From Candidatus Saccharimonadota bacterium (GTDB lineage: Bacteria > Pseudomonadota > Gammaproteobacteria > Enterobacterales > Enterobacteriaceae), in assembly GCF_900128735.1 (NCBI RefSeq), contig NZ_LT667503.1:30001-62000 (forward strand): DNA of 32,000 bases, in the 5' to 3' direction. Below the pieces are notes generated by a model. That model saw only the letters and a list, made by a program, of their open reading frames with translations. It ran no database searches and was not told the DNA's origin. Made by a program: the position numbers and the translations under genes. The first letter of the stretch is position 1, and the number at the start of each line of letters is the position of its first letter. Shown here piece after piece: positions 304 through 28,467 of the stretch.

Positions 304-798
304 TTAAATTTTTTTAATTTTATAAATAGAATTTAATACATTTAATAATTTTCCTACAGCAGCTGTTTTTAATGTTAAAATTAGTTTGATTAATATTTCA
401 TTATAAGTTGGAAGTATAGCTAACTGTTCAATCTCTTGAAAAGATAATATTTTTTCTTCAAATATTGCTTTTGTAATTTTGAATCTTGTATTTTTTTCAG
501 TGAATTTTTTGAATAGTCGGCTAGCGCTACCTGGATGTTGCATAGAAAAAGCGATTAATGTAGGCCCTTTTAAAGTGTCACTTAATTTTGAGAATTTAGT
601 ATTTTTTAGAGATTTTTTTAGTAGCGTATTTCTTATAACAGACATTTCGATATTTAATGAACGAGCCTTTTTTCTTAAGTCATTCATTTCATTTACTTGA
701 ATATTTGATATATCAGCAGTGATAGCAGATAATGCAAATTTAGCGATGTTATGATTTTTTTTTATAATTTTTTTTTTATTTTTTAATTTTAACATCAT
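304..798 (-). CDS. rplJ: 50S ribosomal protein L10
   Basis: The ORF 304..822 aligns along its full length with E. coli L10 (GPTLIAFSMQHPGSASRLFKKF vs [28 protein letters not shown] vs LPTYEE). I place the start at the ATGATG at 798/795 because AAGGA (complement of 807-811) sits 8 nt upstream and the length then matches about 165 aa. The ATG at 822 is the alternative. Confidence 0.92.
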   Translation of the reverse strand: MMLKLKNKKKIIKKNHNIAKFALSAITADISNIQVNEMNDLRKKARSLNIEMSVIRNTLLKKSLKNTKFSKLSDTLKGPTLIAFSMQHPGSASRLFKKFTEKNTRFKITKAIFEEKILSFQEIEQLAILPTYNEILIKLILTLKTAAVGKLLNVLNSIYKIKKI

Positions 799-1009
799 GT
801 TATTATCCTTTTTTATTATCATATAAAATTTTTATAATTTTTAGATATTTTAAAGTTAGGGTATTAAAATCTTTTTTAAAAACTATAATAAGATAAATAT
901 TTTTTATAGTTGATTTTATTGATTTATGTAATACCAGTTAATTTTTTTAAGTTAACTTTTTTCTTTGATATATAAGGATAATGATTATATAAAATATATT
1001 GTATAAATT

Positions 1010-1699
1010 TTATAAAGAAAGATGGTCAATAGTTATTCCGGGACCCATAGTAGTAGATAAACTGATTTTTTTACAATAAATTCCTTTAGATTGATTGTTT
1101 TTAGATTTTTTAATAGCATTAAATAATATTTGCAAATTTTGATATAATTTTTTTTCAGAAAAGTTTATTTTACCAAAACTACTATGTATTATCCCATTTT
1201 TATCATTCTTGTAATTTACTTTTCCTATTTTTGCTTCTTCTATTGATTTTTTTATATCTTCGGTAACAGTTCCAAATTTAGGATTTGGCATTATACCTCG
1301 CGGTCCTAGAATAGGTCCTAATTTACTAACTATTTTCATGGTATCTGGAGATGCAATAATAATATCAAATACTATTTTTTTATTTTTAATAATATCTGCT
1401 AGATCTTCGGTGCCAACAGCGTCTACATTTAATGATTTGGCTATTTCTGCATTTTTTCCTGTAGCAAAAACCGCAATTTTTGATTTTTTTCCTGTTCCAT
1501 GTGGCAGTAATATGGATCCACGGATATTTTGTTCAGATTTTTTAGTATTTATATTCAGATAAAAAGCTGCATCGATACTTTCATTAAATTTAGCAAGTTT
1601 TAGTTGTTTTAAAAAATTTATTCCATTTTTTGCGGAATATAATTTATTTTTTTTTATTTTTTGTTGATTTTGTTTCTTTTTTTTAGATAATTTTTTCAT
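1010..1699 (-). CDS. rplA: 50S ribosomal protein L1
   Basis: The 229-aa product is colinear with E. coli L1 (NIRGSILLPHGTGK, IIASPDTMKIVSKLGPILGPRGIMPNPK, YKNDKNGIIHSSFGK). It starts 3 nt after the rplK stop. Confidence 0.95.
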   Translation of the reverse strand: MKKLSKKKKQNQQKIKKNKLYSAKNGINFLKQLKLAKFNESIDAAFYLNINTKKSEQNIRGSILLPHGTGKKSKIAVFATGKNAEIAKSLNVDAVGTEDLADIIKNKKIVFDIIIASPDTMKIVSKLGPILGPRGIMPNPKFGTVTEDIKKSIEEAKIGKVNYKNDKNGIIHSSFGKINFSEKKLYQNLQILFNAIKKSKNNQSKGIYCKKISLSTTMGPGITIDHLSL

Positions 1700-1702
1700 A
1701 TA

Positions 1703-2134
1703 TTATTCCTTTATCACTTTAATGCCCATAGAATAAGCAGTTCCTTCAATAGATTTTGCTATTTTTTCGATATTTTTTCCTGTCATATCTTGTTGTTTTA
1801 ATTTAGCGATTTCATAGATTTTATTTTTTGTTATGGTGCCTATGATTTCATGTTTTGGTTTTTTAGATCCCGTTTTAATATTTATTTCTTTTTTTAATAA
1901 AATTGATGCTGGTGGAGTTTTTATAATAAATGTAAATGTTTTGTCTGCAAAGACTGTAATAATAACTGGCGTTGGAATTCCTTTTTCAAGATGGGCGGTT
2001 TTTGCATTAAAAATTTTACAAAATTCCATGATATTTACTCCTTTTTGACCTAATGCTGGTCCTACTGGAGGACTGGGATTAGCCATTCCAGATAATATTT
2101 GTAACTTTATTTTTGTATTTGTTTTTTTTATCAT
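1703..2134 (-). CDS. rplK: 50S ribosomal protein L11
   Basis: [25 protein letters not shown] is nearly identical to E. coli L11. The ATG at 2134 ([20 protein letters not shown]) puts the conserved motif at the same offset as in E. coli. The ORF-track start at 2149 adds 5 residues and has no SD. Confidence 0.93.
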
Positions 2135-2223
2135 ATATTTTCCAGACATTTTTGATGATTTTTTTTATCTTTTTAAATTAAGGAAGTTTTACATTTTTTA
2201 AATGAATTATTATCTTTTTCTCT

Positions 2224-2766
2224 TTAGTTGTTTTTTTCTACCTGTTCAAAATTTAATTCAACAGGAGTAGATCTGCCAAAGATTGAAACAGAAACCTTTA
2301 ATCGGTTTTTTTCATAATCTATTGTTTCAACGACACCGTTAAAGTCTGAAAAAGGACCATCATTAACACGTACATTTTCGCCAGGTTCAAAAATAGTTTT
2401 TGGTCTAGGTTTATTACCAATTTTTTTTAGTTTAATTAGAATTTTGTTTATTTCTTTTTCACTGATGGGAGCTGGTTTATCAGAAGTTCCTCCGATGAAA
2501 CCTAAAACTTTTGGTAAGTCTCGAATTAAATGCCAACTGAAATTACTCATTACCATGTTAATTAATATATAGCCTGGAAAGAATTTATAATCGCTTTTTA
2601 TTCTCTTTCCTTTTTTTATTTCAATCACTTCTTCAGAAGGAATCATAATTTTTCCAATGATATCTTCTAATTTTTTTAATTTGATGTGTTCTTTTATTGA
2701 TTGTGCAACACGATTTTCAAAGCCGGAAAAAGATTGTAATACATACCATTTTTTTTTTGCACACAT
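2224..2766 (-). CDS. nusG: Transcription termination/antitermination factor NusG
   Basis: The 180-aa product is colinear with E. coli NusG ([68 protein letters not shown]). Confidence 0.95.
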
Positions 2767-2789
2767 ACCATTTTTATAACCTCAACTAA

Positions 2790-3167
2790 CTAAATAATCC
2801 ATGATATTAAATGCATTAAAAAATTATCTAATACCCATAAAATTAATGATAATAGTATTGTAATAATAATGACAATTGCAGTAGTTTTTAGGGAATCTAT
2901 TTTTTTTGGTACAATAATATTATTTAATTCTCTTGTAGATTCTTGAAGAAAAATAAAACATTTTTTCCAGATTTTTGTATTAAATAATATACATATACAG
3001 AAGATTATTAAGAGGACATTTATTACAATATGTACTATATTTAAATTTGTTTTTTTTGGAAGTGAATTATTTTTTAAAAAAATAATAAATATTAACAAAA
3101 TATTGAACCATTTGATTTTTTCTATATGATGATGTATATATTTTTTATAAATTTTTCGAATATACAT
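2790..3167 (-). CDS. secE: Preprotein translocase subunit SecE
   Basis: The 125-aa product has three hydrophobic segments. Its C-terminal part ESTRELNNIIVPKKIDSLKTTAIVIIITILLSLILWVLD aligns with E. coli [39 protein letters not shown]. It sits directly upstream of nusG. Confidence 0.88.
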   Translation of the reverse strand: MYIRKIYKKYIHHHIEKIKWFNILLIFIIFLKNNSLPKKTNLNIVHIVINVLLIIFCICILFNTKIWKKCFIFLQESTRELNNIIVPKKIDSLKTTAIVIIITILLSLILWVLDNFLMHLISWII

Positions 3168-3359
3168 ATTTTGAACCTTAAAAAAGAAAATGGTTTTTAT
3201 AAAACGATTATATTTTTAAAAAAAAATTTATATAAAGAGTTTTTATTTTTTCAATCTATATATATTTTTTATTTAAAAGTATTTTAATTTATAATAGTGA
3301 TTTTTTTTTGATATATATAAGAAGTTTATAGATTTTTTCGGAGAAATTTTTATTTTTTT

Positions 3360-3433
3360 TGCTGATACCTAGATTTGAACTAGGGACCTCATCCCTACCA
3401 TGGATGCGCTCTGCCGAGCTGAGCTATATCAGC
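3360..3433 (-). tRNA. thrT: tRNA-Thr (anticodon GGU), 74 nt, no encoded CCA
   Basis: The reverse complement is GCTGATATAGCTCAGCTCGGCAGAGCGCATCCATGGTAGGGATGAGGTCCCTAGTTCAAATCTAGGTATCAGCA. It folds as a cloverleaf with a 7-bp acceptor stem and anticodon arm CATCC/ATGGTAG/GGATG. The discriminator A is followed by AAAA. Confidence 0.95.
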
Positions 3434-3443
3434 GTGTTTTTTT

Positions 3444-3515
3444 AGCGGGCAGTGGGAATTGAACCCACATAATCAGCTTGGAAGGCTGAAGTAATATCCA
3501 TTATACGATGCCCGC
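3444..3515 (-). tRNA. glyT: tRNA-Gly (anticodon UCC), 72 nt, no encoded CCA
   Basis: The reverse complement is GCGGGCATCGTATAATGGATATTACTTCAGCCTTCCAAGCTGATTATGTGGGTTCAATTCCCACTGCCCGCT. This is nearly identical to E. coli glyT as I recall it. The anticodon loop is CTTCCAA. Confidence 0.95.
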
Positions 3516-3540
3516 ATTATAAAAAATATAGATATTTTTT

Positions 3541-3622
3541 TGGTGGGAGAAGGATTCGAACCTTCGAAGTCTATGACATCAGATTTACAGTCTGCTCCCT
3601 TTAACCACTCGGGCATCCCACC
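3541..3622 (-). tRNA. tyrU: tRNA-Tyr (anticodon GUA), 82 nt with a long variable arm, no encoded CCA
   Basis: The reverse complement is GGTGGGATGCCCGAGTGGTTAAAGGGAGCAGACTGTAAATCTGATGTCATAGACTTCGAAGGTTCGAATCCTTCTCCCACCA. The anticodon loop is CTGTAAA. The terminal A is the discriminator and is followed by AAAAAA. Confidence 0.95.
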
Positions 3623-3624
3623 TT

Positions 3625-3697
<73 letters not shown>

Positions 3698-3745
3698 TTT
3701 TTTATCATATTTAATAAAAATTTTTTTGTTATTAAATAATATTTA

Positions 3746-3775
3746 ATTATATGTATGTAATTAAATAAAAGTCAA
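3746..3775 (-). promoter_or_regulatory. Candidate sigma-70 promoter of the thrU-tyrU-glyT-thrT operon
   Basis: The minus strand reads TTGACT (3775-3770), an 18-nt spacer, then TATAAT (3751-3746). This lies about 45-50 nt upstream of the tRNA-Thr(UGU) 5' end. A G/C-containing -35 hexamer stands out in an otherwise nearly pure A/T spacer. The same hexamer pair recurs upstream of the tRNA-Val operon. Confidence 0.55.
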
Positions 3776-4176
3776 CTTATTTTTTTTTTTTTAAAAAATA
3801 TCTTTAATATTTAAAAATACTTTTTTTTAAAGAAAACAGAAAATATTTATTTTTTTACGTAATTTGTATAGTTTATTTTTTTCTAAAAATGAATATTTAT
3901 AAATCTTCAATAGCATTAATATTTTAAGATATGAGGTTTTTTATTAAAATTAATTTAATTCAATAACTAAAATTTTTTATATAAATAGAGATTTTTATGC
4001 AATATATTTAGATAAAATTTTTTTACTACTTCCGTTTATTTTTAAAAGTATTTCTTTTTTTATATTATAAGCTCTATATAATATATATAGGATATCTTTT
4101 TTAAAAAATGATATCAATCATTATATTTTTTAATATTTAGCATTTATGAATAAAATTATTATGATAATACATTGGG

Positions 4177-5064
4177 GTGTTTATGTGGCATAGAAAGATA
4201 AATTTAATTAAAGAAAAGTATAATATATCAAATTTAAAAAATAAAATAAAAGTTTCTTTTGAATTTTTTCCACCTAAAAATACTATAATTGATTCATTAT
4301 TTATTAATTCGATAAGAGAATTAAAAAATTTTAATCCAGATTTTTTTTCTGTTACGCATAGTGTGAATACAAAAAATAAAAAAGATACGTCGATTGTAGT
4401 TCAAGAGATACGACGGATAGCTTCAAATATTACTGTAGCTCCTCATTTAACTAGTATTGGTTATACAGTTATGGATTTGAAAAATATTGCTGAAAAATAT
4501 TGGCAAGATGGAATAAGAAATATTATTGCTCTACGAGGAGATTTTCCTCTTAAATATCAAGGTCCTAAGATATATGCTGTAGATTTAATAAAACAATTAA
4601 AAAATGTTGCTAATTTTAAGATCTTTGTTGCCGCATACCCTGAAATTCATCCAGAATCTATAAATTTAAAGGATGATCTTATGAATTTAAAAAATAAAAT
4701 GGATGTTGGAGCGGAACATGCTATTACGCAATTTTTTTTTGATGTAGAAAAATTTTTACGATTTCGTGATAATTGTTATAAAAATAATATCAATATTGAT
4801 ATCATTCCAGGTATTTTGCCCATTTTAGATATTCAACAATTAGAAAAATTTTCAAATATGACTAATGTATATGTCCCAAAATATATTTTGAAAAAATTTC
4901 ATCAACATATTAAAAACAATAAAAAATGTATTTCTATGAGTATTAATATAGCTGTTAATATTATTTTAAAATTATACCAAGAAGGGATTAAAAAATTTCA
5001 TTTGTATACATTAAATCGTTCAGAATTAAGTTTAGGTATTTGTCAACGATTAGGGTTGTTATAA
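4177..5064 (+). CDS. metF: 5,10-methylenetetrahydrofolate reductase
   Basis: The product is colinear with E. coli MetF (VSFEFFPPKN, APHLTSIG, IRNIIALRGD, VAAYPEIHPES, ITQFFFDVEKFLRFRD, IIPGILPI, FHLYTLNR). The ORF-track start is GTG at 4177. The ATG at 4183 is an equally plausible start. Confidence 0.93.
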   Translation: MFMWHRKINLIKEKYNISNLKNKIKVSFEFFPPKNTIIDSLFINSIRELKNFNPDFFSVTHSVNTKNKKDTSIVVQEIRRIASNITVAPHLTSIGYTVMDLKNIAEKYWQDGIRNIIALRGDFPLKYQGPKIYAVDLIKQLKNVANFKIFVAAYPEIHPESINLKDDLMNLKNKMDVGAEHAITQFFFDVEKFLRFRDNCYKNNINIDIIPGILPILDIQQLEKFSNMTNVYVPKYILKKFHQHIKNNKKCISMSINIAVNIILKLYQEGIKKFHLYTLNRSELSLGICQRLGLL

Positions 5065-6071
5065 ATTAGATGCGGTATTATATATCAAAAATTTTTTAGT
5101 TTTATTTTTTTTTCAAAAAATAAAAAATAAATATTTTAAAATTTTTTCTTTATATTATACATATTTTTAATATTTAAATAATATTAATATTATTAAATAA
5201 ATATATTTACTATTTAATTTTGTTTTTTATTAAGTAAAATTTATTATTAATATAATATATAAAATCATTTATATCTTTACATTTCTGAAAAAGTTTAATA
5301 ATTATTATTAATAATTTTTTTTTCAAGCTATAGAGTAGAGACTGAGATTGATTTGGTTAAAAAAATAAAGATATTTTTATAAATTTTTTAAAAAAAATAT
5401 TTCAAGATTTTTAAAATAATTATTATTTCAATTGTATTAAAATTATGATTTATATATTTATTGATATATTAAATTTTTTTTTAAAAAAAAATGAAAAGTT
5501 AAACTATATTTTTATATTTTTTTTATTCGATGTCTTTAAGATACAATTTATTTTTTTTATCAATATTTAGTTAATTTTTATAAAGTAATTATTTATTTAA
5601 TTTAGATAAATTAATAGATGCTATTAAAATTATAGATTAACATAAATTTTAAAACAATAATTTTTATTAAGAAAAATATCTTCTAAAAATTTAAGAATTT
5701 ACTAAAGTAGAGAGGGGTATTTTTTTAAATAAAAAAATTGATTGTTATAATTTATTTCACATTCTATTTTTAAAAAAAAATGATAAAAAAAATATTTAGT
5801 AATGGCAACAATATTTTTTATTATTTGAAAAGTATAATAATTTATTGATTTTTTTATTTTTTAGATAAAAAAGATAAATGAATTTTTTTCAACATATATA
5901 TAAAAAAATATATCTAAATGATAAAATTTATATATTATTATAAATATAATATTCTTTAGCACTTATATAAATATTAAAAATTTTTTTATTATTATAAATA
6001 GTTGTGATATTTTTATTAATTTTTATTAAAAAATATATTTATTTTAAGTTAAAAAATGAATAGGAAAAAAA

Positions 6072-7289
6072 ATGCTTATAAAAAATGATAAAAAAGAAAT
6101 AATTGTTTTAGCGTATTCAGGGGGACTAGATACATCTGCAATTATTCCATGGATTAAAGAAAATTATAATTTTGATGTTATAGCTTTTGTTGCTGATGTT
6201 GGCCAATCAAGAAGTGATTTAAAAAATATAAAAAAGAAAGCTATTTTATCTGGGGCTTTAGATTGTTATATTGCCGATTTAAGACATGAATTTGTAGAAA
6301 AATATGTTTATCCAATGTTATCGGTAGGCGCTTTATATGAAGGAAATTATTTATTAGGAACTGCAATAGCTCGACCTATCATAGCAAAGGCGCAAGTAAA
6401 ATATGCTCATCAAATAAACGCTATCGGGTTGAGTCATGGAGCAACAGGAAAAGGTAATGATCAGGTAAGGTTTGAATTAGCTTATGCTTCCTTGGATTCT
6501 TTTCTTCAGGTGATAGCTCCTTGGCGTGAATGGAAATTTCGTTCTAGAGAAGATTTATTAAAATATTTGCAAGAAAAAAATATTAGTACTACCGCTAGTA
6601 TTTCTAAAATATATAGTAAGGATGAAAATATTTTTCATATTTCTACTGAAGGAGGTATTTTAGAAGATCCATGGAATATTGCGAATGATGATTGCTGGAC
6701 ATGGACTACAAATCCTTATTCTGCTCCAAATAATCCTGAAAAAATTTGTTTGTCAATTAAAAAAGGTTGTGTCATATCTATTAACGGAGAGTCGTTAAAC
6801 CCGTATAATTGTTTGAAAAAATTAAATAAATTAGGCTCTAAACATGGCATTGGGCGTATTGATATTGTAGAAAATCGTTTAGTAGGTATGAAATCACGAG
6901 GTTGTTATGAAACACCTGGAGGAACTATTATTTTTTTAGCTCTTAGAGCATTAGAACAGTTAGTTTTGGATCGTGAAAGTATCCAATGGAAAAGTAAAAT
7001 AGCTTTAGAGATGTCAACCTTGATTTATGATGGCCGTTGGTTTACTCCCTTAAAAGATGCGCTTCAAAAATCTTCAGATGTTTTTTCAAAATTTATTGAA
7101 GGCGAAGTAGTAATTGAATTATATAAAGGTTCTGTCATTATTTTAAAAAAACGTTCTTGTAATTCTTTATATTCTTCTGAGTACGCTACCTTTAGTGATG
7201 ATCAGGTATATAATCAAAAAGACGCTCAAGGGTTTATTCGTTTATTTTCGTTATCTTCACGTATTCGAATGTTAAAAAATAAAAAATAA
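6072..7289 (+). CDS. argG: Argininosuccinate synthase (short, about 400-aa type)
   Basis: It has the N-type ATP pyrophosphatase motif AYSGGLDTS, plus GATGKGNDQVRFE, ENRLVGMKSRGCYETPGG and DGRWFTP. An AGGA lies about 9 nt upstream of the ATG. Confidence 0.93.
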   Translation: MLIKNDKKEIIVLAYSGGLDTSAIIPWIKENYNFDVIAFVADVGQSRSDLKNIKKKAILSGALDCYIADLRHEFVEKYVYPMLSVGALYEGNYLLGTAIARPIIAKAQVKYAHQINAIGLSHGATGKGNDQVRFELAYASLDSFLQVIAPWREWKFRSREDLLKYLQEKNISTTASISKIYSKDENIFHISTEGGILEDPWNIANDDCWTWTTNPYSAPNNPEKICLSIKKGCVISINGESLNPYNCLKKLNKLGSKHGIGRIDIVENRLVGMKSRGCYETPGGTIIFLALRALEQLVLDRESIQWKSKIALEMSTLIYDGRWFTPLKDALQKSSDVFSKFIEGEVVIELYKGSVIILKKRSCNSLYSSEYATFSDDQVYNQKDAQGFIRLFSLSSRIRMLKNKK

Positions 7290-7310
7290 TATTTTTTTTG
7301 GAGTTAATAT

Positions 7311-8702
7311 ATGTCGCTTTGGGGCGGAAGATTTACAGAAGTTTCTCAGAAACAATTTAAAATATTTAATCGTTCCTTATCGGTTGATTATCGTTTAGTT
7401 GAAGAAGACATCGAATCTTCGATTGCGTGGTCAAAAATGTTATATGAGACTGGAGTTTTAACAGATCAAGAACAAAATTTAATAGAAAAAACTTTATCTG
7501 ATATTTTAAAGCATCATACTCATGATATTAATTCTATTTTATCTTCTGATGCAGAAGATATACATAGTTGGTTAGAAAAAATATTAATAGATAAAATAGG
7601 TTCTTTAGGAAAAAAATTATATACAGGTCGAAGTAGAAACGATCAGATTGCTACTAATTTAAAGTTATGGTGTAAAAAAAAATTACGTAATATTTATCTA
7701 TTAATTATTCAATTACAATGTAAATTTTTAAAACAAGCTACCATTCATCTGCATACTATTATGCCGGGATATACTCATTTACAAAGAGCTCAACCAATTA
7801 CATTTTCTTATTGGTGTCTTGCGTATATTGAAATGTTTGAACGAGATAGAAAGAAAGTTAAACAAACATTAAAAAATCTTGATTATTCCCCTTTAGGGTG
7901 CGGTGCTATTTCAGGAACTTCGTGGTTTATTGATAGAAAAAAATTAGCAAAATTAATGGGTTTTTCGAATTGTACCAAGAATGCATTAGATAGTGTTTCA
8001 GATAGGGATTTTATTTTAGAAATTTTATCTGTTGCATGTATTAGTATGATGCATTTATCTAGATTTTCTGAAGATTTAATTTTTTATAATTCAGGTGAAG
8101 CTAATTTTGTTTGCTTATCTGACTCCATTACTTCCGGTTCTTCATTAATGCCTCAAAAAAAGAATCCGGATATTTTAGAGCTAATTAGAGGTAAATGTAG
8201 CTCGGTATATGGTTCTTTATTTTCTGTTTTTACTTTATTAAAAGGGTTACCTTTAGCATATAATAAAGATCTTCAAGAAGATAAAAAAAATTTATTTTCT
8301 GCATTAGATACCTGGGAAGAATGTTTGATAATGGCGTCGGTGGTATTAAGAAATATTACAGTAAATATTGACATTTGTAGAGTTGCAGCAGAAAAAGGTT
8401 ATAGTAATGCAACAGAAGTAGCAGATTACTTAGTTAATAAGGGGTTATCATTTCGTGATGCCCATGATATTGTTGGAAAAATTGTTATAGAGGCTATAAA
8501 TTTAAATCAATCTTTGGTAGAATTAGATTTATTAGTATATAAAAAATATCATCCTTTTTTTTCTCAAGATATTTATCAAATTTTAACTTTAACTTCTTGT
8601 TTAGATAAAAAAAATTCTTATGGTGGAGCATCTTTTCAACAGACTCAATTAGCTATAGTTTCAGTTGAAAAAAGATTAAAAAAATTAAAACAATACATTT
8701 AA
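7311..8702 (+). CDS. argH: Argininosuccinate lyase
   Basis: MSLWGGRFTE..., TGRSRNDQIATNLKLW, MPGYTHLQRAQPITF and the signature SGSSLMPQKKNPD are colinear with E. coli ArgH. An SD-like TGGAG lies 8 nt upstream. Confidence 0.95.
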   Translation: MSLWGGRFTEVSQKQFKIFNRSLSVDYRLVEEDIESSIAWSKMLYETGVLTDQEQNLIEKTLSDILKHHTHDINSILSSDAEDIHSWLEKILIDKIGSLGKKLYTGRSRNDQIATNLKLWCKKKLRNIYLLIIQLQCKFLKQATIHLHTIMPGYTHLQRAQPITFSYWCLAYIEMFERDRKKVKQTLKNLDYSPLGCGAISGTSWFIDRKKLAKLMGFSNCTKNALDSVSDRDFILEILSVACISMMHLSRFSEDLIFYNSGEANFVCLSDSITSGSSLMPQKKNPDILELIRGKCSSVYGSLFSVFTLLKGLPLAYNKDLQEDKKNLFSALDTWEECLIMASVVLRNITVNIDICRVAAEKGYSNATEVADYLVNKGLSFRDAHDIVGKIVIEAINLNQSLVELDLLVYKKYHPFFSQDIYQILTLTSCLDKKNSYGGASFQQTQLAIVSVEKRLKKLKQYI

Positions 8703-8736
8703 AATTTAATGATATTAAAATAAAAATTTTTTTTTA

Positions 8737-8770
8737 AATCACGCGATTTTTATCGCGTGATTATTTAATT
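8737..8770 (+). terminator. Intrinsic terminator-like hairpin downstream of argH
   Basis: A perfect 11-bp G/C-containing stem AATCACGCGAT (8737-8747) / ATCGCGTGATT (8752-8762) has a 4-nt TTTT loop. It begins 35 nt after the argH stop and is followed by ATTTAATT. Confidence 0.65.
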
Positions 8771-9185
8771 AATATCCATATTAAAATTTTTTTTATTTAA
8801 TTATTTAATAGCGATGTAGTTTTCTTTTTTTACATTTGAATTTCATAAATAATACAAATCTTTTTTTTATATCAAATATATATTATATAAAATAAAAGCT
8901 TATTTTTTATTTTTTTAGTTAAAAAAAATTTCTTTTAATATATATGAAGAAATACCATGAATATGGTTTCTTTTATTTTTTTTTAAACAATATAATAAGT
9001 TATCTTGCGAAGAAATAATAAATATTTTTTTATTAGAATTTATAAATTTATCTAATTAATTAATATCAGAATATTTATTCTGAAGAGTATATATTAATAA
9101 TATACCTTTTAAGATTAAATAATCATATTATTATTACTATAAATTAAATATTTTTAAGATAGTTATTAATATATACTTTATATTT

Positions 9186-11027
9186 TTAAGAATCATCTAA
9201 AAAACTTTTTAATATTTCCGATCTACTTGGGTGCCTTAATTTCCGTAATGCTTTTGCTTCTATTTGACGTATTCTTTCTCTAGTGACGTCAAATTGTTTT
9301 CCGACTTCCTCTAATGTATGATCTGTATTCATATCAATTCCAAAGCGCATACGTAATACTTTAGCTTCTCGCGCGGTTAATCCAGCTAAAACATCATGCG
9401 TAATAGTTTTGAGGCTTTCTGAAGTAGCCGACTCTAAGGGAAGTTCTAAGTTAGTATCTTCAATAAAATCTCCAAGATGTGAATCATCATCATCACCAAT
9501 AGGAGTTTCCATAGAAATTGGTTCTTTTGCAATTTTTAAAACTTTACGAATTTTGTCTTCTGGTATTAACATTTTTTCTGAAAGCTCTTCAGGAGTAGGT
9601 TCTCGTCCGATTTCTTGTAGCATGTAACGTGATATTCGGTTTAATTTATTGATAGTTTCTATCATATGCACGGGTATGCGAATAGTTCTTGCTTGATCGG
9701 CTATAGATCGTGTAATAGCTTGTCTAATCCACCAAGTTGCATAAGTTGAAAACTTATATCCCCGACGATATTCAAATTTATCTACAGCCTTCATTAAGCC
9801 GATATTACCTTCTTGAATAAGATCTAAAAATTGTAGTCCACGGTTAGTATATTTTTTAGCTATAGATATTACTAATCTTAAATTTGCTTCAACCATTTCT
9901 TTTTTAGCTTTTTTTGCTTTTATTTCGCCAATCGACATTCGCTTATTTATTTCTTTTGCTTCTTTAATTGTCAACCCTATTTTTTTTTCAATATTTACAA
10001 GTTTTTTTAAAATTTTAAAAATATCTTTTTGATATTTAGATAATTTTATAGACCAAGGGGTATTCATTTTAATGGCAGTATAAAACCATTTTTGATTGGT
10101 TTCTTGATTTTTAAAAATTTTTATAAAATTATTTTTAGGCATTTTGCATATGTTTACGCATAAGTGAAAAATTTTATTTTCTTGTATGTGGATTTTTTTA
10201 ATAAAATTACGCATATTTTCTACTAAATAATCAAATTGTTTTGGTACTAATCGAAATTGTTTCAAGATTTCTGAAAGTTCTGAGATTGCAGAAATAGCAT
10301 TTTTATGGTTTCTATTTTTTGTTTTGATTATATAATTTGTAATATAATATTGCGTTTGTAATTTTAAAAATTTTTCTTTAGCAATATTTGGATCAATATG
10401 ATTTTCTTCTTCATGATCTGTAGAAGAATTATTAATATTAATTATTTTTTCAGTTTTTTTGTTTATATTATTTAATATTTCATTTGTGGTTATTGGAAAT
10501 AATGTATTTTCTATATTAGGATCAACAAATCCGGAAATGATTTCAGATAATTTCATATCTCCTGATTCTACTTTATGATATAGAGCTAAAAGATATGAAA
10601 TTGCTTCTGGATATTCAGAAAAAGAACTTTGTACTTGATTAATACCTTCTTCAATACGTTTTGCGATATCAATTTCTCCTTCGCGAGTTAATAACTCTAC
10701 AGTACCCATTTCACGCATATACATGCGTATTGGATCAGTTGTTCTACCTAATTCTATTTCAACATTAGAAAGCACTTGAGCTGCCACTTCTACTGCATCT
10801 TCATCTGTATCAGTTGGCGTTTCATTTAATATTAAATTACCAGCATCACGAGCTTCTTCTACCACTTGAATACCAAAATCTTTTATCATTTGAATAATAT
10901 TTTTAATTTGATCAGAATTGATAATATCATCGGGTAGATGATCATGTATTTCTGTATACGTAAGGTATCCCTGTTCTTTTCCCTGAGAGACTAGTAGTTT
11001 AAGTTGTGCATGTGGTTTTTTTTCCAT
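9186..11027 (-). CDS. rpoD: RNA polymerase sigma-70 factor
   Basis: At 613 aa it is the same length as E. coli RpoD. Regions 2-4 are almost invariant ([38 protein letters not shown]; [30 protein letters not shown]). It is the last gene of rpsU-dnaG-rpoD. Confidence 0.97.
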
Positions 11028-11173: not shown

Positions 11174-12934
11174 TCACTGACATGGCTTAATATTATTAAT
11201 GACAATTTTTTGGCTAATTATCCATAACTTTTTTTTTTCTAACTGATTTAATCCTTCTTTTCTCTCTTTATTAAGCAAAGAAGTATATTTATATTCTAAA
11301 TTTTGCAATTTTAATTTTTTAAGTAGCTCAAAAAATGTTGGATAAACTTTATTTTTTCCAATCATATTGTTCCATATAATTAAATATTTAAATATTTTTT
11401 CTAATTTTGAATTTCGATAATATTCAATTAATTGATTAGTTTTAAGATTAGGTTTTTTGTGTAGTTTTTTAATTAAATTTACAAAAATGTCAATTCCTAA
11501 TATATGAAATTTTTTTATTTTTTTTGTATCTTTAATTTCTTTTGCTAATATTGGATTTTGTAAAATTAAACTAATTAACAATCGTATAGTTGTTTTCTTT
11601 ACAAAAGATATATGATTAATTTTTTTTTTTGTATATGCTTTGTCACATAATTTTCTAAATTGATATGTATCTAAAATACCCGTTTTTTCTCCTAACATTT
11701 TTTTTAAATGTATTTGTATATTTTTTCCTGGAATTTTATTTATTAAAGGTAAAATTAATTTGCTTAACTGAATACGATCTTCAATTTTTCCTAATTGCAT
11801 ATTTTGAGAAATTTTATTAAATAAAAATGCATATAATATTTCTGATTTTTTTATTCTTTTTTTAAATTCTTTTTTTCCTTCTTTGAATATTAAACTACTA
11901 GGATCTTCATTATCAGGTAAAAATATAAATTTTACTGTACGATCATCAGTTAAGAATGGAAGGATAAGATTTAGTGTAGTCCAATTTGCTTTTTTTCCAG
12001 CATCATCTCCATCATAACAAAAAATAATATTATCGCTGAGTTGAAATAATTTCTTACAGTGATATACAGTGATAATTGTTCCTAATAAAGCTACCGCATA
12101 AATATTATATTGTGCTAATGATAAAACATCAAAATATCCTTCTACTACTAAGATCTGTTTTGGATTTGGATTTTGATTTTTTAATTCATAAATTCCATAA
12201 AGATTTTTATTTTTATAAAATATTGGAGTTTCTGATGAATTTAGATATTTTGGTTGATGTAGATTGTTAATTCTACGGCCTCCAAATCCATTAATTTTTC
12301 CATATTTATCTCTGATAGGGAAGATAACACGTTGTCTAAATCTATCGTATAATTTATTATTTTTATGGGTAATTATTAATCCAGAATCAGAAAAGATAGA
12401 CGATTCTAGTTTTTTTTTTTCAAGATAACTTTTTATTTGATTATTTTTTATTGAAGCATAACCTAATAAAAATTTATGAATAATTTTGAGTTTAATTCCT
12501 CTTTGAAGTAAATATTGATAAGCGATATTGTTAGACGAAAAAAGATTTTTTTGATATATTTTAGAAATATCAGATAATAATAAATGTAATTTTTTTATGT
12601 AAAAGTATTTTTTTGCTTCTTTTGTTTTTATTTTTTTATAAGGAATTTCAAGATTGTTTAATGAGCTTAGCTCTGTAATGCTATCTAAAAAATTTAATTG
12701 TTCATATAACATTAAAAAATCAATAGCGTTTCCATGTATTTTACATCCAAAACAATAAAAAAATTGTTTTTTTTTATTTATAATAAACGATGGTGTTTTT
12801 TCTTGATGAAAAGGACACAATGCTTGGTAATTATTTCCTATTTTTTTAAGTTTAATTCGTGAATTTATTAAGTTTATTATGTTAGTTCGTTCAAGTAGTT
12901 CTTCGATAAAATGTTGTGGAATTTTTTCTATCAT
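11174..12934 (-). CDS. dnaG: DNA primase
   Basis: It has the zinc ribbon CPFHQEKTPSF..YCFGC and the TOPRIM motifs VVEGYFDV and YDGDDAGKKA. It lies between rpsU and rpoD. It contains two in-frame A11 tracts (complement of 11630-11640 and 12410-12420). Confidence 0.93.
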   Translation of the reverse strand: MIEKIPQHFIEELLERTNIINLINSRIKLKKIGNNYQALCPFHQEKTPSFIINKKKQFFYCFGCKIHGNAIDFLMLYEQLNFLDSITELSSLNNLEIPYKKIKTKEAKKYFYIKKLHLLLSDISKIYQKNLFSSNNIAYQYLLQRGIKLKIIHKFLLGYASIKNNQIKSYLEKKKLESSIFSDSGLIITHKNNKLYDRFRQRVIFPIRDKYGKINGFGGRRINNLHQPKYLNSSETPIFYKNKNLYGIYELKNQNPNPKQILVVEGYFDVLSLAQYNIYAVALLGTIITVYHCKKLFQLSDNIIFCYDGDDAGKKANWTTLNLILPFLTDDRTVKFIFLPDNEDPSSLIFKEGKKEFKKRIKKSEILYAFLFNKISQNMQLGKIEDRIQLSKLILPLINKIPGKNIQIHLKKMLGEKTGILDTYQFRKLCDKAYTKKKINHISFVKKTTIRLLISLILQNPILAKEIKDTKKIKKFHILGIDIFVNLIKKLHKKPNLKTNQLIEYYRNSKLEKIFKYLIIWNNMIGKNKVYPTFFELLKKLKLQNLEYKYTSLLNKERKEGLNQLEKKKLWIISQKIVINNIKPCQ

Positions 12935-16326: not shown

Positions 16327-16797
16327 TTAATAAAGATTTTCTATTTTCATAATTCTTGTTTTTCCGGCTTTTATCATACCAGAATATAGACGTATTTTTT
16401 TTATTTTTTCTGAATAATGTATTGTTATTATCATTGATTTAATCCAATGATGGATTAATGATTTATTGATCATAATAAGTTCATTGGAATAAATGTATTG
16501 TTTATATAAAATCATTTGACTTATTTTTTCTTTAGGAATGTTGTTAGATATTTCTAGAGTTATGGAGATTTTAATTTCTTTTGTTATTTTTATTAATATT
16601 TGATATTTATTATTAATATCATTGATATTAATGATGCCATGACAAGGACTAATTATTATTTTTCCGGTTTGTTGTACACTCATTTTTTGAGAATAAATTT
16701 TTTTTAAAGCGTTTTGATTAATTTTTTGAGAGGTTAAGATAGATATTTTTCCAGATATCGGAGATATTATATTTAAAGTTTTACATTTATTTTTCAT
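16327..16797 (-). CDS. crr: Degenerate PTS EIIA-Glc (Crr)-like protein; intact ORF but both catalytic His positions substituted (possible pseudogene in the making)
   Basis: LNIISPISGKI aligns with E. coli IEIIAPLSGEI, TGKIIISPCHGII with TGNKMVAPVDGTI, and the C-terminus LYSGMIKAGKTRIMKI with LSGSVTVGETPVIRIKK. The position and orientation relative to ligA match E. coli crr-ptsI-ptsH-cysK-cysZ-zipA-ligA. The remainder is very diverged. Confidence 0.6.
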   Translation of the reverse strand: MKNKCKTLNIISPISGKISILTSQKINQNALKKIYSQKMSVQQTGKIIISPCHGIININDINNKYQILIKITKEIKISITLEISNNIPKEKISQMILYKQYIYSNELIMINKSLIHHWIKSMIITIHYSEKIKKIRLYSGMIKAGKTRIMKIENLY

Positions 16798-19077: not shown

Positions 19078-19150
19078 TGGGTTGTGCAGGATTTGAACCT
19101 GCGACCAATTGATTAAAAGTCAACTGCTCTACCGACTGAGCTAACAACCC
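19078..19150 (-). tRNA. lysV: tRNA-Lys (anticodon UUU), 73 nt, no encoded CCA
   Basis: The reverse complement is GGGTTGTTAGCTCAGTCGGTAGAGCAGTTGACTTTTAATCAATTGGTCGCAGGTTCAAATCCTGCACAACCCA. The anticodon loop is CTTTTAA. Its 3' end lies 4 nt from the convergent ligA stop. Confidence 0.95.
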
Positions 19151-24406: not shown

Positions 24407-25087
24407 ATGAAAAATTTTATAAAAAAAAAAATATGGAAACGTTGGAGACCAAACTTGCGCGATGAAAATAGTAAAGAAAATAATATCGTTAAATCATTGA
24501 CAATAAAAAAAGATTATTCTTCCAAAAAAGACTCTAAAAAAAAAATGAATAAAAAAAATTTACAACAGTATCTAAAAGGGTATCAAATAGGATTGGATAC
24601 AGGTTATCAACGGGGGTGGTTTCAGGGTTTTAATTCAATTTCATTAAAATATTTAAAAAATTATGAACAATATTTGCAGATACAATTTTCAAATATTTTG
24701 AAATGTTTCTGGAAGTCGATTAATGATTTAGATAGTCAGCTTGAATTAAAATTATTAAAAATGATTGTTAAAATATCTAAAATTGTTGTTTCTAATTCAT
24801 TATTAATTAATGAAAATTTTATATTAGATAAAATAAAAAATATTTTAAAAAATTTTAGACGCACGTTAAGAAATCCTAAATTATTTATTCATCCTCAGAA
24901 AAAAAAAATTATAGAAGAAAAATTTGGTAGATTATTAAAATTATATAATTGGACATTGAGTACTGATAAAAAAATTAATATGCATAGTTGTTATGTTCTT
25001 GCTGATGAAGGCGAGATAGACGCTACAGTAGAGCGGTGTTGGAATGAAATTGAACAAGTTTTGTTAGTTCAAAAGGATAAAATATGA
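24407..25087 (+). CDS. fliH: Flagellar export apparatus protein FliH (FliI regulator)
   Basis: WKRWRPNL aligns with WKTWTPDDL, the GYQIGLDTGYQRGWFQG repeat with GYQAGIAEGRQQGHKQGYQEG, and CYVLADEGEIDATVERCWNEI with CKVSADEGDLDASVATRWQEL. It lies between fliG and fliI. It contains an in-frame A11 tract at 24421-24431. Confidence 0.82.
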   Translation: MKNFIKKKIWKRWRPNLRDENSKENNIVKSLTIKKDYSSKKDSKKKMNKKNLQQYLKGYQIGLDTGYQRGWFQGFNSISLKYLKNYEQYLQIQFSNILKCFWKSINDLDSQLELKLLKMIVKISKIVVSNSLLINENFILDKIKNILKNFRRTLRNPKLFIHPQKKKIIEEKFGRLLKLYNWTLSTDKKINMHSCYVLADEGEIDATVERCWNEIEQVLLVQKDKI

Positions 25088-26454
25088 CTTTTAAAAAAAA
25101 TAAATGGTGTAAAAGAGTAAATATTTTTAAAAAAAAAATTAGTTTTATCTCTAATTTTATATCGATAGGGTATATTATTAGTATAAATAATTTTTTAGTG
25201 AAAGCGTCTGGAATCACTTTACCTATTGGAAAATTTTGTTTTATTGAAAATAATAATCAAAATAAAGCTCCTACGATTATTTGTAAAATTGTTGGTTTTT
25301 CTAAAAAAAATAGTTTTTTAATGCCTCTTTATTCTTTAGATGGTATTTTTCCGGGAGCTAAAGTTTTTTCTTATTCATTTTTTAGTAGTACATTTTTAAT
25401 ATTTGATAAACTTCCTTTTTCATATAAATTACTGGGGCGTGTTTTAGATAGTTTTGGTTTACCTTTAGACGGTCTTAATAATATTCATACAGATGATTAT
25501 CGAGATTTATCTTCTCAAATAATAAACCCATTAAATCGTGCGCCCATTAAAGAAATTTTTGATACTGGTATTTGCGCTATTAATAGTTTATTAACTATCG
25601 GAAAAGGTCAAAGAATTGGAATTTTTGCTCGTGCTGGTGTTGGAAAAAGCATGTTATTAGGTATGATTGCCCGACATTCTAAAGTAGATATTATTGTTAT
25701 CGTCTTGGTAGGAGAACGTGGAAGAGAAGTAAAAGAGTTTCTTGATAATATTTTAGGACCTGAAAGTCTTAAAAAATCTGTAGTAATAGTTTCTCCCGCA
25801 GGTACTTCGCCATTATTTCGAGTACAAGCTATACAATATGCTACATCTATTGCGGAATATTTTTGTAAAAAAAATAATAATATTTTATTAATTGCTGATT
25901 CATTAACTCGATATGCTATGGCGTATAGAGAAATATCATTGTCAATTAATGAAATACCAATTGCGAAAGGGTATCCTGCGTCTATTTTTTCAAAAATTCC
26001 GGAATTAATAGAAAGAACAGGAAATATTTCGAAAAATTTTGGTTCTATTACTGCTATTTATACGATTCTTACAGAAGGCGATGAGTCTAATGATCCTATC
26101 TTGGATATTTCAAAATCTATATTAGATGGACATATTTTTTTATCTAATGATTTAGCAGATACTGGGCATTATCCAGCAATAGATATTAGTAAATCAATCA
26201 GTAGGGTGATGTCATCTATTATTAATTCTCGACATAGAAAAAGTGCTATTTATATTAAAAAATTAATTTCATGTTATATCTTGCATCAAGATCTTATTAC
26301 TTTAGGTGCTTATGTTGTAGGAACAAATAATTTATTAGATATAGCTATTAAAATATGGCCAAAATTAACAAAATTTTTACAGCAAGATTTTTTTGAGCAT
26401 TTTTCTTATCAATATTCTATTGAAAAATTAGAAAAATTATTAAATAATATTTAA
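25084..26454 (+). CDS. fliI: Flagellum-specific (type III export) ATPase FliI
   Basis: It has Walker A GIFARAGVGKSMLLG, the catalytic segment VLVGERGREVKEF and Walker B ILLIADSLTRYAMAYREIS. SITAIYTILTEGDE and GHYPAIDI are also present. An ATGA overlap with the fliH stop (25084-25087) suggests translational coupling. Confidence 0.95.
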   Translation: MTFKKNKWCKRVNIFKKKISFISNFISIGYIISINNFLVKASGITLPIGKFCFIENNNQNKAPTIICKIVGFSKKNSFLMPLYSLDGIFPGAKVFSYSFFSSTFLIFDKLPFSYKLLGRVLDSFGLPLDGLNNIHTDDYRDLSSQIINPLNRAPIKEIFDTGICAINSLLTIGKGQRIGIFARAGVGKSMLLGMIARHSKVDIIVIVLVGERGREVKEFLDNILGPESLKKSVVIVSPAGTSPLFRVQAIQYATSIAEYFCKKNNNILLIADSLTRYAMAYREISLSINEIPIAKGYPASIFSKIPELIERTGNISKNFGSITAIYTILTEGDESNDPILDISKSILDGHIFLSNDLADTGHYPAIDISKSISRVMSSIINSRHRKSAIYIKKLISCYILHQDLITLGAYVVGTNNLLDIAIKIWPKLTKFLQQDFFEHFSYQYSIEKLEKLLNNI

Positions 26455-26478
26455 AAATTGTTTTTTTATGGAAAGTAT

Positions 26479-26932
26479 ATGAAAAATAATTATTTAAGAA
26501 GTTTGCTATATTTAAAAAAAAAATCTCAATTGTCGATTAGAAAGAATATGTATATAATAAAAGATTATATACATAAAAAAAAAAATTTTTGATCAGATAT
26601 TACAATTAAAAAAATATTATAAAGAGTATTATAATGATTTATATAAAGATTTTTTGATAGGTATTAGTCAGTATCAAGTAAATACTTACTTCAATTTTTT
26701 ATATATGTTAAAGACAGTTATTTTAAAACAATATAAATATATCGATTATTATAATAAAAAATTAAAGATTCATTGGAAATTACACAAAAATTTTTATTTT
26801 TTTTTTAAAAAAATATGTTTTTTAGAATCATATATTTATAAAAATATTAAAAAAAATTCTATGTTAAAAGAACAAAGAAATTCTGATAATTTTATTGAAA
26901 CATTAATATATTTACGAAAAAATATTAAATAA
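26479..26932 (+). pseudogene. fliJ: fliJ (export chaperone/stalk) interrupted by a 1-nt frameshift inside an A11 tract; possibly rescued by slippage
   Basis: The ATG at 26479 (GGAAAG 5 nt upstream) opens MKNNYLRSLLYLKKKSQLSIRKNMYIIKDYIHKKKNF and stops at TGA 26590-26592. The +1 frame continues ..KKKIFDQILQLKKYYKEYYNDLYKDFLIGISQYQVNTYFNFLYML.. to 26932 and includes the 92-aa track ORF. It aligns with E. coli FliJ [41 protein letters not shown]. The two frames meet in the A run at 26575-26585. Joined, they give about 150 aa versus 147 in E. coli. Confidence 0.8.
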
Positions 26933-27102: not shown

Positions 27103-28467
27103 ATGAAATTAATTAATAAGCCAGTTAAATTTCAATATCAAAAAAATTCTATATCTTTAGAAGATCAACGTGTACCTTCTTCTAATGATAATTTACAATT
27201 AAAAAGTTTTTTGTTTAATAGAAAAATTTTTTTCTTTGATGCTTTATTTCATCAATTTTCTTGTATGTTATATGATGGATTTAAAAAAAATTTTTCTATA
27301 AAATTTAATTTTCAATATTTATCTTTTAAATATAATAATCAATATTATGCAAAAAAAATATTATCTGAACAAGAGAGTAATATTTTTCAACTTGCTAATT
27401 TAAAAGAATATTGTATTTTAATGGTTTCTCATAATTTTTTTGCAATTTTTACTTATATTTTATTTGGAGATAGTGATTTAATAGCATATAAAAAAAACAT
27501 TTATTGTACAAAAAAGAAAAATAATATTGCTATCATAAATCATGTTTTAAACAATATATTAATTATATTTAATGATTTCTTAAAAAAATTTTTTCGAATT
27601 TCTATTCAATCTGTTTTTAAAAATAAAAATTCAGTAAAAAATTTTTTTAAAAATAATAATTTAGATGATTATATCATTTTTTTGTTTCAAGTTACTTTTA
27701 GTTCCCTTAAAGAAGTTATTAAAATATATATACCAAAAAGTATTTTATACAAAATTTTTTTAAAAAATGATGAACAAAATAATCTTTTAAAAAAAAATAT
27801 TAAAACAATTTGGAATAAAAAAATAGAATGTAATATTAAATCTATTAATTTATTTTTAAAAATAAATATTATGAGTTATTTTATATCACTGAATGATTTT
27901 TTTGATTTAAGAATTGGTGATATTTTTTGTATAAAAAAAATAAAATATGTATTGGGTTTTTTTGATAATTTCCCTTTGATTTTAGGAAGATATGGTATAT
28001 ATCATGGTTATCGTTCTTTATATTTTAAGAATTTTATTAATGCAGAGAATAAATGTATGATAAATAAAAAGTTTATTATTTCTTCAAAAGATAGTGCATC
28101 TAATAACGATATTAAAATTCATCAAGATTTCAGTGATAATAAAATATATAAACAGAAGATTTTAAAAAAAGAAGAAACAGGAGATACTATATCTAGTAAA
28201 AAAAATGATTTTTTAGATTTTTTAAAAAAAATGAAACCGTTTATGAATATCCCGGTTGCTATTACTATTGAATTAGGAACTAAAAAATTAAGTTTAAAGA
28301 AATTACTAAATTTATCTGAAGGATCAATACTTCAGTTAAATGAAAAGGAAAATGTTCCATTAAAAATATATATTCAAGATTATTTATTAGCTTTAGGTGA
28401 ATTAGTTATTGTTAATGAAAAGTATGGTGTTCGTATCATAAATCTTATGCAAAATTTAGCAATATAG
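27103..28467 (+). CDS. fliM/fliN: Fused flagellar C-ring protein: FliM (residues 1 to about 318) joined in frame to a complete FliN (residues 319-454)
   Basis: The FliM part aligns as follows: FFDALFHQFSCML with LEIINERFARHF, ILMVSHNFFAIFTYILFGDSD with LVVFSPSLVFIAVDNLFGGDG, and LRIGDIFCIKK...YGIYHGYRSLYFKNFIN with LNPGDVLPIEK...YGTLNGQYALRIEHLIN. The FliN part MNIPVAITIELGTKKLSLKKLLNLSEGSILQL...LALGELVIVNEKYGVRI aligns with MDIPVKLTVELGRTRMTIKELLRLTQGSVVAL...IAQGEVVVVADKYGVRI. There is no stop at the junction, and an in-frame ATG lies at 28057. Confidence 0.85.
   Translation: MKLINKPVKFQYQKNSISLEDQRVPSSNDNLQLKSFLFNRKIFFFDALFHQFSCMLYDGFKKNFSIKFNFQYLSFKYNNQYYAKKILSEQESNIFQLANLKEYCILMVSHNFFAIFTYILFGDSDLIAYKKNIYCTKKKNNIAIINHVLNNILIIFNDFLKKFFRISIQSVFKNKNSVKNFFKNNNLDDYIIFLFQVTFSSLKEVIKIYIPKSILYKIFLKNDEQNNLLKKNIKTIWNKKIECNIKSINLFLKINIMSYFISLNDFFDLRIGDIFCIKKIKYVLGFFDNFPLILGRYGIYHGYRSLYFKNFINAENKCMINKKFIISSKDSASNNDIKIHQDFSDNKIYKQKILKKEETGDTISSKKNDFLDFLKKMKPFMNIPVAITIELGTKKLSLKKLLNLSEGSILQLNEKENVPLKIYIQDYLLALGELVIVNEKYGVRIINLMQNLAI

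Follow-up and report, generated by a model that had tools for sequence, protein, structure and literature searches.

In insect endosymbionts, genes that have fallen out of frame at a poly(A) tract are reportedly rescued by transcriptional slippage, as Wernegreen et al. are said to have described in Molecular Biology and Evolution in 2010 ("Slip into something more functional"). The study that the first-pass annotation of the present locus had named as its precedent, Tamas et al. (2008), is quoted in this sense in two later sources, which give corrected transcripts of 12–50% at poly(A) frameshifts in Buchnera and Blochmannia (as quoted in PMC5009743) and of about 30%, such frameshifts being conserved between species (as quoted in PMC3017870). 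In Citrobacter rodentium tssM1, the genome carries a run of 11 adenines (A11), deletion of one A restores the frame, and transcripts range from A10 to A15, with 20–25% full-length protein (PMC4256274). Slippage sites are also found in the type III secretion genes mxiE, mxiA, spa33 and spa13 of Shigella flexneri, with a reported frequency of 55% for spa13 (Penno et al., as quoted in PMC4256274), and Spa13 (SctO) corresponds in the injectisome to FliJ (PMC7762205). Here, we analyzed a 32,000-nucleotide stretch of DNA (hereafter, the window) from Buchnera aphidicola of a Cinara-type (Lachninae) aphid, in which fliJ, the gene for the partner of the flagellar export ATPase FliI, is split by a single extra A in an A11 tract.

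Our preferred interpretation, to which we assign a probability of roughly 0.55, is that this is a real and tolerated frameshift in a gene under selection, and that full-length FliJ is made at reduced yield via RNA polymerase slippage, ribosome sliding, or both. It draws on the anatomy of the locus, its homology to fliJ, a single-A difference from its sister lineage, constraint on its sequence and recurrence of the out-of-frame state across lineages, each of which we observed.

A fliJ gene split at an A11 tract

The frame opened by the fliJ start codon reads CAT AAA AAA AAA AAT TTT TGA at 26572–26592. From about 26557 up to the terminal TAA, no stop interrupts the +1 frame, and the two open frames overlap only around the tract (Table 1). 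Neither part of the gene has an internal stop. Deleting one A from the tract gives a 150-aa protein, MKNNYLRSLLYLKKKSQLSIRKNMYIIKDYIHKKKIFDQ..., which contains ...HKKKIFDQ... at the junction; the extra A sits in a lysine-coding tract at codons 33–35, in the middle of helix 1. Re-reading the sequence bore out all coordinates and frame arithmetic of the first-pass annotation. It had claimed that a single extra A splits fliJ (which the A10 and intact gene of the sister lineage bear out), that both halves are otherwise stop-free, and that losing one A leaves an open reading frame (ORF) of about 150 codons, which proved to be exactly 150.

The GC content is 22.4% in the window and 13% in fliJ. The 3′ open interval spans 123 codons from stop to stop and is among only three of at least 115 codons out of the 5062 non-genic stop-to-stop intervals in the window. 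Sense-strand tracts of A10 or longer occur 14 times inside ORFs of the window, and the frame is broken only at fliJ tract 2. In-frame A10 and A11 tracts lie in the intact-looking genes fliH (24421–24431, 24536–24545, and 24899–24908), fliI (25129–25138), and dnaG (11620–11630 and 12410–12420, T11 on the forward strand), in-frame A11 being present in both fliH and dnaG. If slippage or sliding were as frequent as we propose for fliJ, genes with in-frame tracts would have to lose a matching share of their product.

In the public record (a 443,747-bp NCBI chromosome), the protein annotated at this locus is 75 aa long and starts at the ATG at 26705 (26705–26932). Gene callers also list pieces of 37 aa and 92 aa, and the corrected 150-aa FliJ is absent from the protein collection.

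The gene follows fliI directly in the order fliE-fliF-fliG-fliH-fliI-fliJ-fused fliM-fliN-fliO-fliP-fliQ-fliR. The closest named relative of the window's FliI is that of Buchnera aphidicola of Cinara tujafilina (79% identity), and all close matches come from Buchnera of Lachninae aphids. The corrected FliJ, at 150 aa, compares with 145–152 aa in 10 lineages. On its own, it matches Pfam family PF02050 over residues 37–138 with an E-value of 1.5e-4 and 22.4 bits, below the gathering score of 28.4 bits; 9 of the 10 members of the ortholog set match this family at E < 0.01, the best at 1.5e-9. The FliJ profile search took in 13 proteins. A profile of the corrected protein and nine orthologs matches Salmonella FliJ (3AJW) with an E-value of 5.4e-11, profile positions 7–140 aligning with chain residues 8–142, and since this match is colinear over residues 8–142, it includes the part upstream of the frameshift. 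Together with the location after fliI, this end-to-end match substantiates the initial assignment of the gene as fliJ.

An AlphaFold2 model of the sister lineage's protein (84% identical to the window's) consists of two helices (residues 2–60 and 64–149; mean pLDDT 83.8). A Foldseek search of the PDB with this model gave as its top match YscO (4MH6), the injectisome counterpart, at a non-significant E-value of 0.37; 3AJW was not listed. The frameshift interrupts helix 1 halfway along. Neither the 37-aa stub nor a reinitiated fragment of 92 or 75 aa would be able to form the FliJ hairpin. We rejected two other accounts of the N-terminus. Termination followed by reinitiation was rejected as a source of a functional hairpin: the FliJ frame has no ATG, GTG or TTG close to the TGA, and its nearest starts, TTG at 26654 and ATG at 26705, give the 92-aa and 75-aa fragments without most of helix 1. 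A true start 3′ of the tracts is contradicted by the N-terminus, whose alignment to Salmonella FliJ begins at residue 8; conservation of the short upstream frame as protein (xxxNxSxIxxFKKK) in lineages that are out of frame at tract 1 again counts against a later start.

Constraint on fliJ and recurrence across Buchnera lineages

A search with the corrected protein recovered a sister lineage (L008 and L009), whose FliI is 92% identical to the window's and whose FliJ is intact, 150 aa long and 84% identical. The gene is coded on two independent contigs with the same gene order (ENA ERZ27237414 and Logan DRR198868). The sister locus L008 has GGAAAA at the position of the window's Shine–Dalgarno-like motif, which is thus conserved. 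In the DNA alignment, the A10 of the sister lineage versus the A11 of the window is the sole insertion or deletion (indel) in fliJ. Over a 6.9-kb alignment of the window with L008, at 90% identity, there are six indels in about 409 intergenic nucleotides versus three in about 6.3 kb of coding sequence; one of these three is the fliJ A11, and the others lie at the very 3′ termini of fliO and fliR. At the intergenic rate, about 6.7 indels would be expected in fliJ, and one was seen (Poisson P ~0.01). At the 3′ end of fliO (window 28880), T6 in the window corresponds to T5 in L008, and the predicted C-terminus differs between the lineages.

Pairwise ratios of nonsynonymous to synonymous substitution rates (dN/dS), computed by NG86, are higher in fliJ (0.27–0.66) than in fliI (0.14–0.28) and similar to those of fliH and fliM-N. 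Since dS is probably underestimated in an AT-saturated genome, we relied more on outgroup-polarized counts of nonsynonymous and synonymous changes (N:S), on stop-codon simulations and on indel counts. On the window branch, fliJ accumulated 3N:6S, of which 2N:5S lie downstream of the frameshift, a ratio indistinguishable from that of fliI along this branch (10N:15S; Fisher P = 1). Under neutrality, N/(N+S) for fliJ would be about 0.86, and the binomial probability of the window-branch counts is at most 0.01 even at 0.77. When substitutions were simulated under neutrality, the fliJ ORF stayed stop-free with a probability of 0.08 after 20 changes and 0.004 after 45. Elsewhere in the window, the interval 5065–6071, between metF and argG, has a GC content of 10% and no ORF longer than 41 codons; it probably represents the fully eroded remains of lost genes. 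Outside the break, the window's fliJ shows purifying selection, and it carries no other lesion. Taken alone, the frameshift in the window would then be either recent or tolerated.

To place the window among its relatives, we compared the fliI–fliJ region of the window, nine further Buchnera lineages and one mislabeled contig of a metagenome-assembled genome (MAG), 11 lineages in total, and placed them on a FliI tree; the FliI of the Nippolachnus piri symbiont (P0018) and a 127-aa FliJ fragment from a 433-kb genome (P0139) fell outside this comparison for want of a contig. The gene is out of frame at one tract in 8 of the 11 lineages, the window included, and at both tracts in none. It is fully in frame only in L008 and in the Buchnera of Tuberolachnus salignus and Acyrthosiphon pisum. 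At tract 2, the A11 of the window recurs with the same +1 break in L011, in L012 a C follows the A11 (out of frame, requiring +1 or −2), and L008 and the C. tujafilina symbiont (L010) have an in-frame A10. Tract 1 is an in-frame A10 in the window and in L011; it is A9, out of frame and requiring +1, in the symbionts of C. tujafilina, C. kochiana and C. pseudotaxifoliae, in LT667500 and in the mislabeled MAG contig. In every lineage, a single correction yields a colinear FliJ of 145–152 aa with no further stop. A comparison of A-tract lengths had been suggested as a check among strains or populations; made across related lineages, it reveals the same or the neighboring tract out of frame in seven others, and the additional disabling mutations in orthologs that would have told against expression are found in none of the 11 after one correction.

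L011, with a FliI 76–77% identical to the window's, has the same A11 and both halves open; its branch counts are 11N:9S for fliJ versus 35:30 for fliI, and dN/dS between the window and L011 fliJ is 0.27. L012 is out of frame at tract 2 and otherwise open for 115 codons. Four lineages with A9 at tract 1 lie outside the window's clade, with FliI only 72–80% identical, and have kept ORFs of 148–150 aa; on the simulated rates, a neutral pseudogene would not be expected to stay open across these lineages (P ≤ 0.005 per branch). For C. kochiana and C. pseudotaxifoliae, our reconstructions with one added A match exactly VFP80969.1 and VFP85624.1, both listed in GenBank as "Flagellar FliJ protein"; the depositors of both genomes already translate through the tract. 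For the A11 of tract 2, shared descent and recurrence are indistinguishable (A11 in L011, A11 and C in L012, A10 in L008 and L010). Apparent breaks at homopolymers are only occasional in the other fli genes: L011 has them in fliH and fliO, the C. tujafilina record in fliE and fliF. With fliJ broken in most lineages and the other fli genes only occasionally, fliJ appears unusually tolerant of the out-of-frame state, yet it is kept.

We made some further observations on these contigs. The frame changes part-way through fliH (4317–4990) and fliO (8451–8644) of L011 and through fliE (1118–1449) and fliF (1627–3321) of L010, which may be real or reflect assembly error. The own-branch counts of fliJ are 12N:1S in L008 (2583–3035) and 36N:8S in L010 (6396–6853), near the neutral 0.86, and both genes are in frame at tract 2. 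It is the lineages with A11 at tract 2 (window 3N:6S, L011 11N:9S) that look constrained, a contrast that runs against the expectation from frame status, although the counts are small. The mislabeled contig (L001; JBPBPJ010000057.1, positions 1–10172) was deposited as "MAG: Janthinobacterium lividum"; it has a GC content of 21%, encodes a FliI 61% identical to the window's, and carries a Buchnera-type fliJ with the A9 frameshift at tract 1 after fliI. It is almost certainly a mis-binned Buchnera contig. A scan of contigs by FliI peptide patterns returned no named Buchnera, and this contig was its sole relevant match.

Possible routes to full-length FliJ and competing explanations

Read literally, the gene would give a 37-aa stub, and the 150-aa FliJ would arise only when the tract loses one A or gains two. 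In terms of frame, full length requires a net change of −1 or +2 nucleotides in the RNA, or of +1 or −2 at the ribosome. The likeliest route would be RNA polymerase slippage on the T11 template, producing a mixed mRNA pool in which A10 and A13 are represented; sliding of ribosomes along the A11 would probably contribute, and a +1 shift at UUU UGA may contribute slightly. The outcome would be a supply of FliJ that is reduced but not zero, which could be tolerated, a single FliJ stalk for each FliI hexamer being all that the export ATPase requires. We infer both slippage or sliding at the window's tract and a functional product; we rank polymerase slippage first and sliding as contributory.

Re-pairing of tRNA-Phe in +1 on U UUU would lead into GAT CAG... 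in the FliJ frame, with ...KKKNFDQ... in the product. However, UUU UGA has no Shine–Dalgarno-like stimulator upstream, where the A run lies, and it is not conserved: L011 shares the A11 but reads TTT AAA at this point, without a stop, and L008 is in frame. No stimulatory RNA structure was detected, the 80 downstream nucleotides folding no better than shuffled sequences (z = 0.33). We rejected a programmed −1 frameshift of the dnaX type, since the window needs +1 (or −2) and has no downstream structure; −1 would suit the lineages with A9 at tract 1. The first-pass annotation had proposed that fliJ may be expressed at a reduced level rather than dead; its further suggestion, that export activity would be tuned in this way, is speculative. 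Constraint and recurrence do oppose a simply dead gene; the slippage invoked for it must reckon with the rarity of deletions in Buchnera transcripts, and the ribosomal routes had been left out of account.

A number of points weigh against a tolerated, partly rescued frameshift. Of 157 insertions in Buchnera transcriptomes, 151 are located at homopolymers, where deletions number only 16, a ratio of about 9:1 (PMC5574713); −1 and +2, either of which would suit the window's tract, are the less favored outcomes, while the A9 and A11-plus-C lineages need the common +1. This study, by Traverse and Ochman and the one made transcriptome-wide in Buchnera, saw no frame restoration (PMC5574713). The gene has been lost altogether in the Buchnera of Cinara cedri (PMC3246468), and with fliK gone here as well, the flagellar set seems to be eroding. 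The GC content of fliJ is near that of dead spacer (8–10%), and its dN/dS is high. The window strain is represented by a single assembly. Finally, the change from the sister's A10 to the window's A11 is possibly very recent, in which case the signs of selection would say nothing about the gene once frameshifted; given some 20 substitutions along the branch, the ORF would stay stop-free by chance in about 8% of cases under neutrality.

This last point leads to the view that the A10-to-A11 change is the first step of fliJ loss, with a negligible slippage product and a constraint that predates the mutation. The in-frame sister lineage fits such a history, as do the absence of fliJ from C. cedri Buchnera, the deletion of fliK and fusion of fliM-fliN in the window's clade, the 0.08 chance of staying stop-free and the missing frame restoration in the data of Traverse and Ochman (PMC5574713); single-base homopolymer indels are, moreover, a cited route to Buchnera pseudogenes (Moran 2009 and Tamas 2008, as cited in PMC5574713). 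A fresh pseudogene would nevertheless demand independent fresh hits in 8 of 11 lineages, none of them decayed further. It also sits poorly with the A9 that four lineages of 72–80% FliI identity have in common while keeping ORFs of 148–150 aa (≤ 0.005 per branch), and with L011, where the same A11 goes with an N:S equal to that of fliI. We regard it as unlikely, though worth keeping in mind. Still more doubtful, in our estimate, is the absence of any fixed genomic frameshift, owing either to a homopolymer miscall of a true A10 or to a mixture of A10 and A11 genomes in the polyploid Buchnera population. A random error would have to have struck the one gene that is also out of frame in seven further lineages, each assembled independently and two of them with depositor curation, and all other long in-ORF homopolymers of the window are in frame, including A11 in fliH and dnaG, so the assembly is not generally noisy at homopolymers. 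Its appeal lies in the one assembly on record for the strain, in the nature of the difference (one base in a long homopolymer, a classic error site), in the C. tujafilina record, whose frame changes in fliE and fliF show that such records can be noisy, and in the public annotation, which is not curated at fliJ, as seen from the 75-aa fragment.

The preferred reading, a tolerated frameshift with reduced yield, can also be divided differently between polymerase and ribosome. Rescue might be mainly translational, by sliding on A11 with tRNA-Lys(UUU) or by a +1 shift at UUU UGA awaiting release factor 2 (RF2), with polymerase slippage playing a minor part. In a reconstituted E. coli system, sliding is robust on A11 with little on A9 or A10, but it is undirected and its products are mostly truncated (PMC4363877). 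An oligo-A frameshift in chloroplast atpB is reported to be corrected by ribosomal recoding (PMC8254509), U UUU UGA permits perfect +1 re-pairing of tRNA-Phe, and homopolymer deletions are rare in Buchnera transcripts (PMC5574713). The nearest tested analog, the A11 of tssM1, nonetheless works at the RNA level (PMC4256274); the shifty stop is missing from L011 despite its identical A11, and neither a Shine–Dalgarno-like stimulator upstream of UUU UGA nor a downstream structure (z = 0.33) was detected. A mainly translational rescue therefore strikes us as rather unlikely. A bolder version of the tolerated frameshift holds that fliJ of Cinara-associated Buchnera is kept out of frame by selection at exactly one tract, the two slippery tracts forming an attenuator that would hold FliJ well below the co-transcribed FliI, at a level in line with one FliJ per FliI hexamer. 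It would fit the count of 8 in 11 lineages out of frame with none at both tracts, the fliI-like N:S in the window and L011 versus near-neutral values in L008 and L010 (in frame at tract 2), and the high-frequency slippage site of Shigella Spa13, as quoted in PMC4256274. We consider this improbable. Were the out-of-frame state selected, it would amount to stoichiometry control built from mutational debris.

The locus in context

Several neighboring features accompany the split gene (Table 1). fliK is absent, and fliJ is followed only by a 170-nucleotide spacer with a GC content of 8%. The fused fliM-fliN ORF is also found in L008, L010, L011, L012, and in the T. salignus symbiont (L016); the two genes are separate in L013–L015 and in A. 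pisum, which also retains fliK. On the reverse strand, at 16327–16797, a 156-aa ORF in a region of 16% GC has a weak match to the glucose-specific IIA component of the phosphotransferase system (crr; 31.9 bits versus a cut-off of 212) and may be a highly diverged or decaying gene.

Table 1. Positions of the fliJ elements and of related features in the window
Feature	Position	Strand	Remarks
Shine–Dalgarno-like GGAAAG	26470–26475	+	3 nt 5′ of the fliJ ATG (26479–26481); read from the sequence
fliJ, 5′ part	26479–26592	+	ATG and 36 codons in frame 0, stop TGA at 26590–26592; codes for FliJ helix 1, first half
Poly(A) tract 1 (A10)	26514–26523	+	in frame in the window
Poly(A) tract 2 (A11)	26575–26585	+	frameshift site, one A above the in-frame A10 of the sister lineage
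fliJ, 3′ part	26585–26932	+	115 codons and TAA at 26930–26932, +1 frame; remaining helix 1, turn and helix 2
UUU UGA	26587–26592	+	frame 0, by-product of the extra A; read from the sequence
fliI	25084–26454	+	flagellar export ATPase, FliJ partner; immediately upstream of fliJ
fliM-fliN, in-frame fusion	27103–28467	+	454 aa; FliM TIGR01397 at residues 82–279, FliN TIGR02480 at residues 377–450
tRNA-Lys(UUU)	19078–19150	−	anticodon reads the AAA codons of the tracts

For annotation, the window's fliJ should count neither as lost nor as a 75-aa fragment. The number of flagellar export genes retained in Lachninae Buchnera depends on how such tracts are treated, since two GenBank records translate through them and others do not. 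The literature we found on fliJ in Cinara Buchnera consists of a presence/absence statement, in which the frameshift goes unmentioned. The gene may serve as a natural test of a contested rescue, for which work on cDNA clones gives 12–50% corrected transcripts while transcriptome-wide data show no restoration. It may also help to distinguish rescue by the polymerase from rescue by the ribosome, since the correction that related lineages need is +1, −1, or none. The peptide at the junction would depend on the route: IFDQILQLK would come from A10 or A13 mRNA or from a shift within the run, and NFDQILQLK from a +1 shift at UUU UGA.

Among the systems to which the locus can be compared, prfB, the gene for RF2, uses a programmed +1 ribosomal frameshift at CUU UGA. 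The window resembles it in that a P-site codon could re-pair in +1 before a frame-0 UGA, and a shift at UUU UGA would enter the correct frame. Here, however, the motif simply comes with the extra A, lacks a Shine–Dalgarno-like stimulator and does not occur in L011, which also has A11. The work on ribosome sliding (Koutmou et al. 2015, PMC4363877) concerns, as in fliJ, an A11 run of AAA lysine codons on which the frame is lost, but what was demonstrated there is loss of product, not rescue. For the oligo-A recoding of atpB, rescue is reported for chloroplasts, not for Buchnera (PMC8254509).

Closer parallels exist among secretion genes. tssM1 belongs to the type VI secretion system of C. rodentium and, like fliJ, combines a genomic A11 in an enterobacterial secretion-system gene with the same requirement for −1 or +2; it differs in that both of its products are needed and their ratio was shown experimentally to matter (PMC4256274), whereas the window's 37-aa stub has no evident role. 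Shigella spa13, which encodes the stalk of a type III export ATPase, likewise has a slippery A or T run, where slippage sets the amount of full-length protein. That case comes from a pathogen whose genome is normal, not from a symbiont driven by mutation to AT-richness, and the source as quoted gives the slippage frequency only, not the state of the genomic frame.

The nearest relatives of the window's fliJ are the slippage genes of Buchnera and Blochmannia. As these are described in the quoted sources, both come from AT-rich insect endosymbionts, have one indel in a coding A run of at least 9–11 in a gene otherwise intact and constrained, and are out of frame in several related lineages. Judged by such sequence-level features, the window's fliJ fits the endosymbiont poly(A) slippage class. 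The cases named in the quoted passages are cell-wall genes, a histidine gene, dnaX, dnaG, and others, not fliJ; fliJ further differs in having two alternating tracts and in needing −1 or +2 rather than +1 in the window. Among the described poly(A)-slippage cases that we found, fliJ is new, and its two alternative tracts, one of them out of frame in most lineages, represent a modest extension of a known phenomenon.

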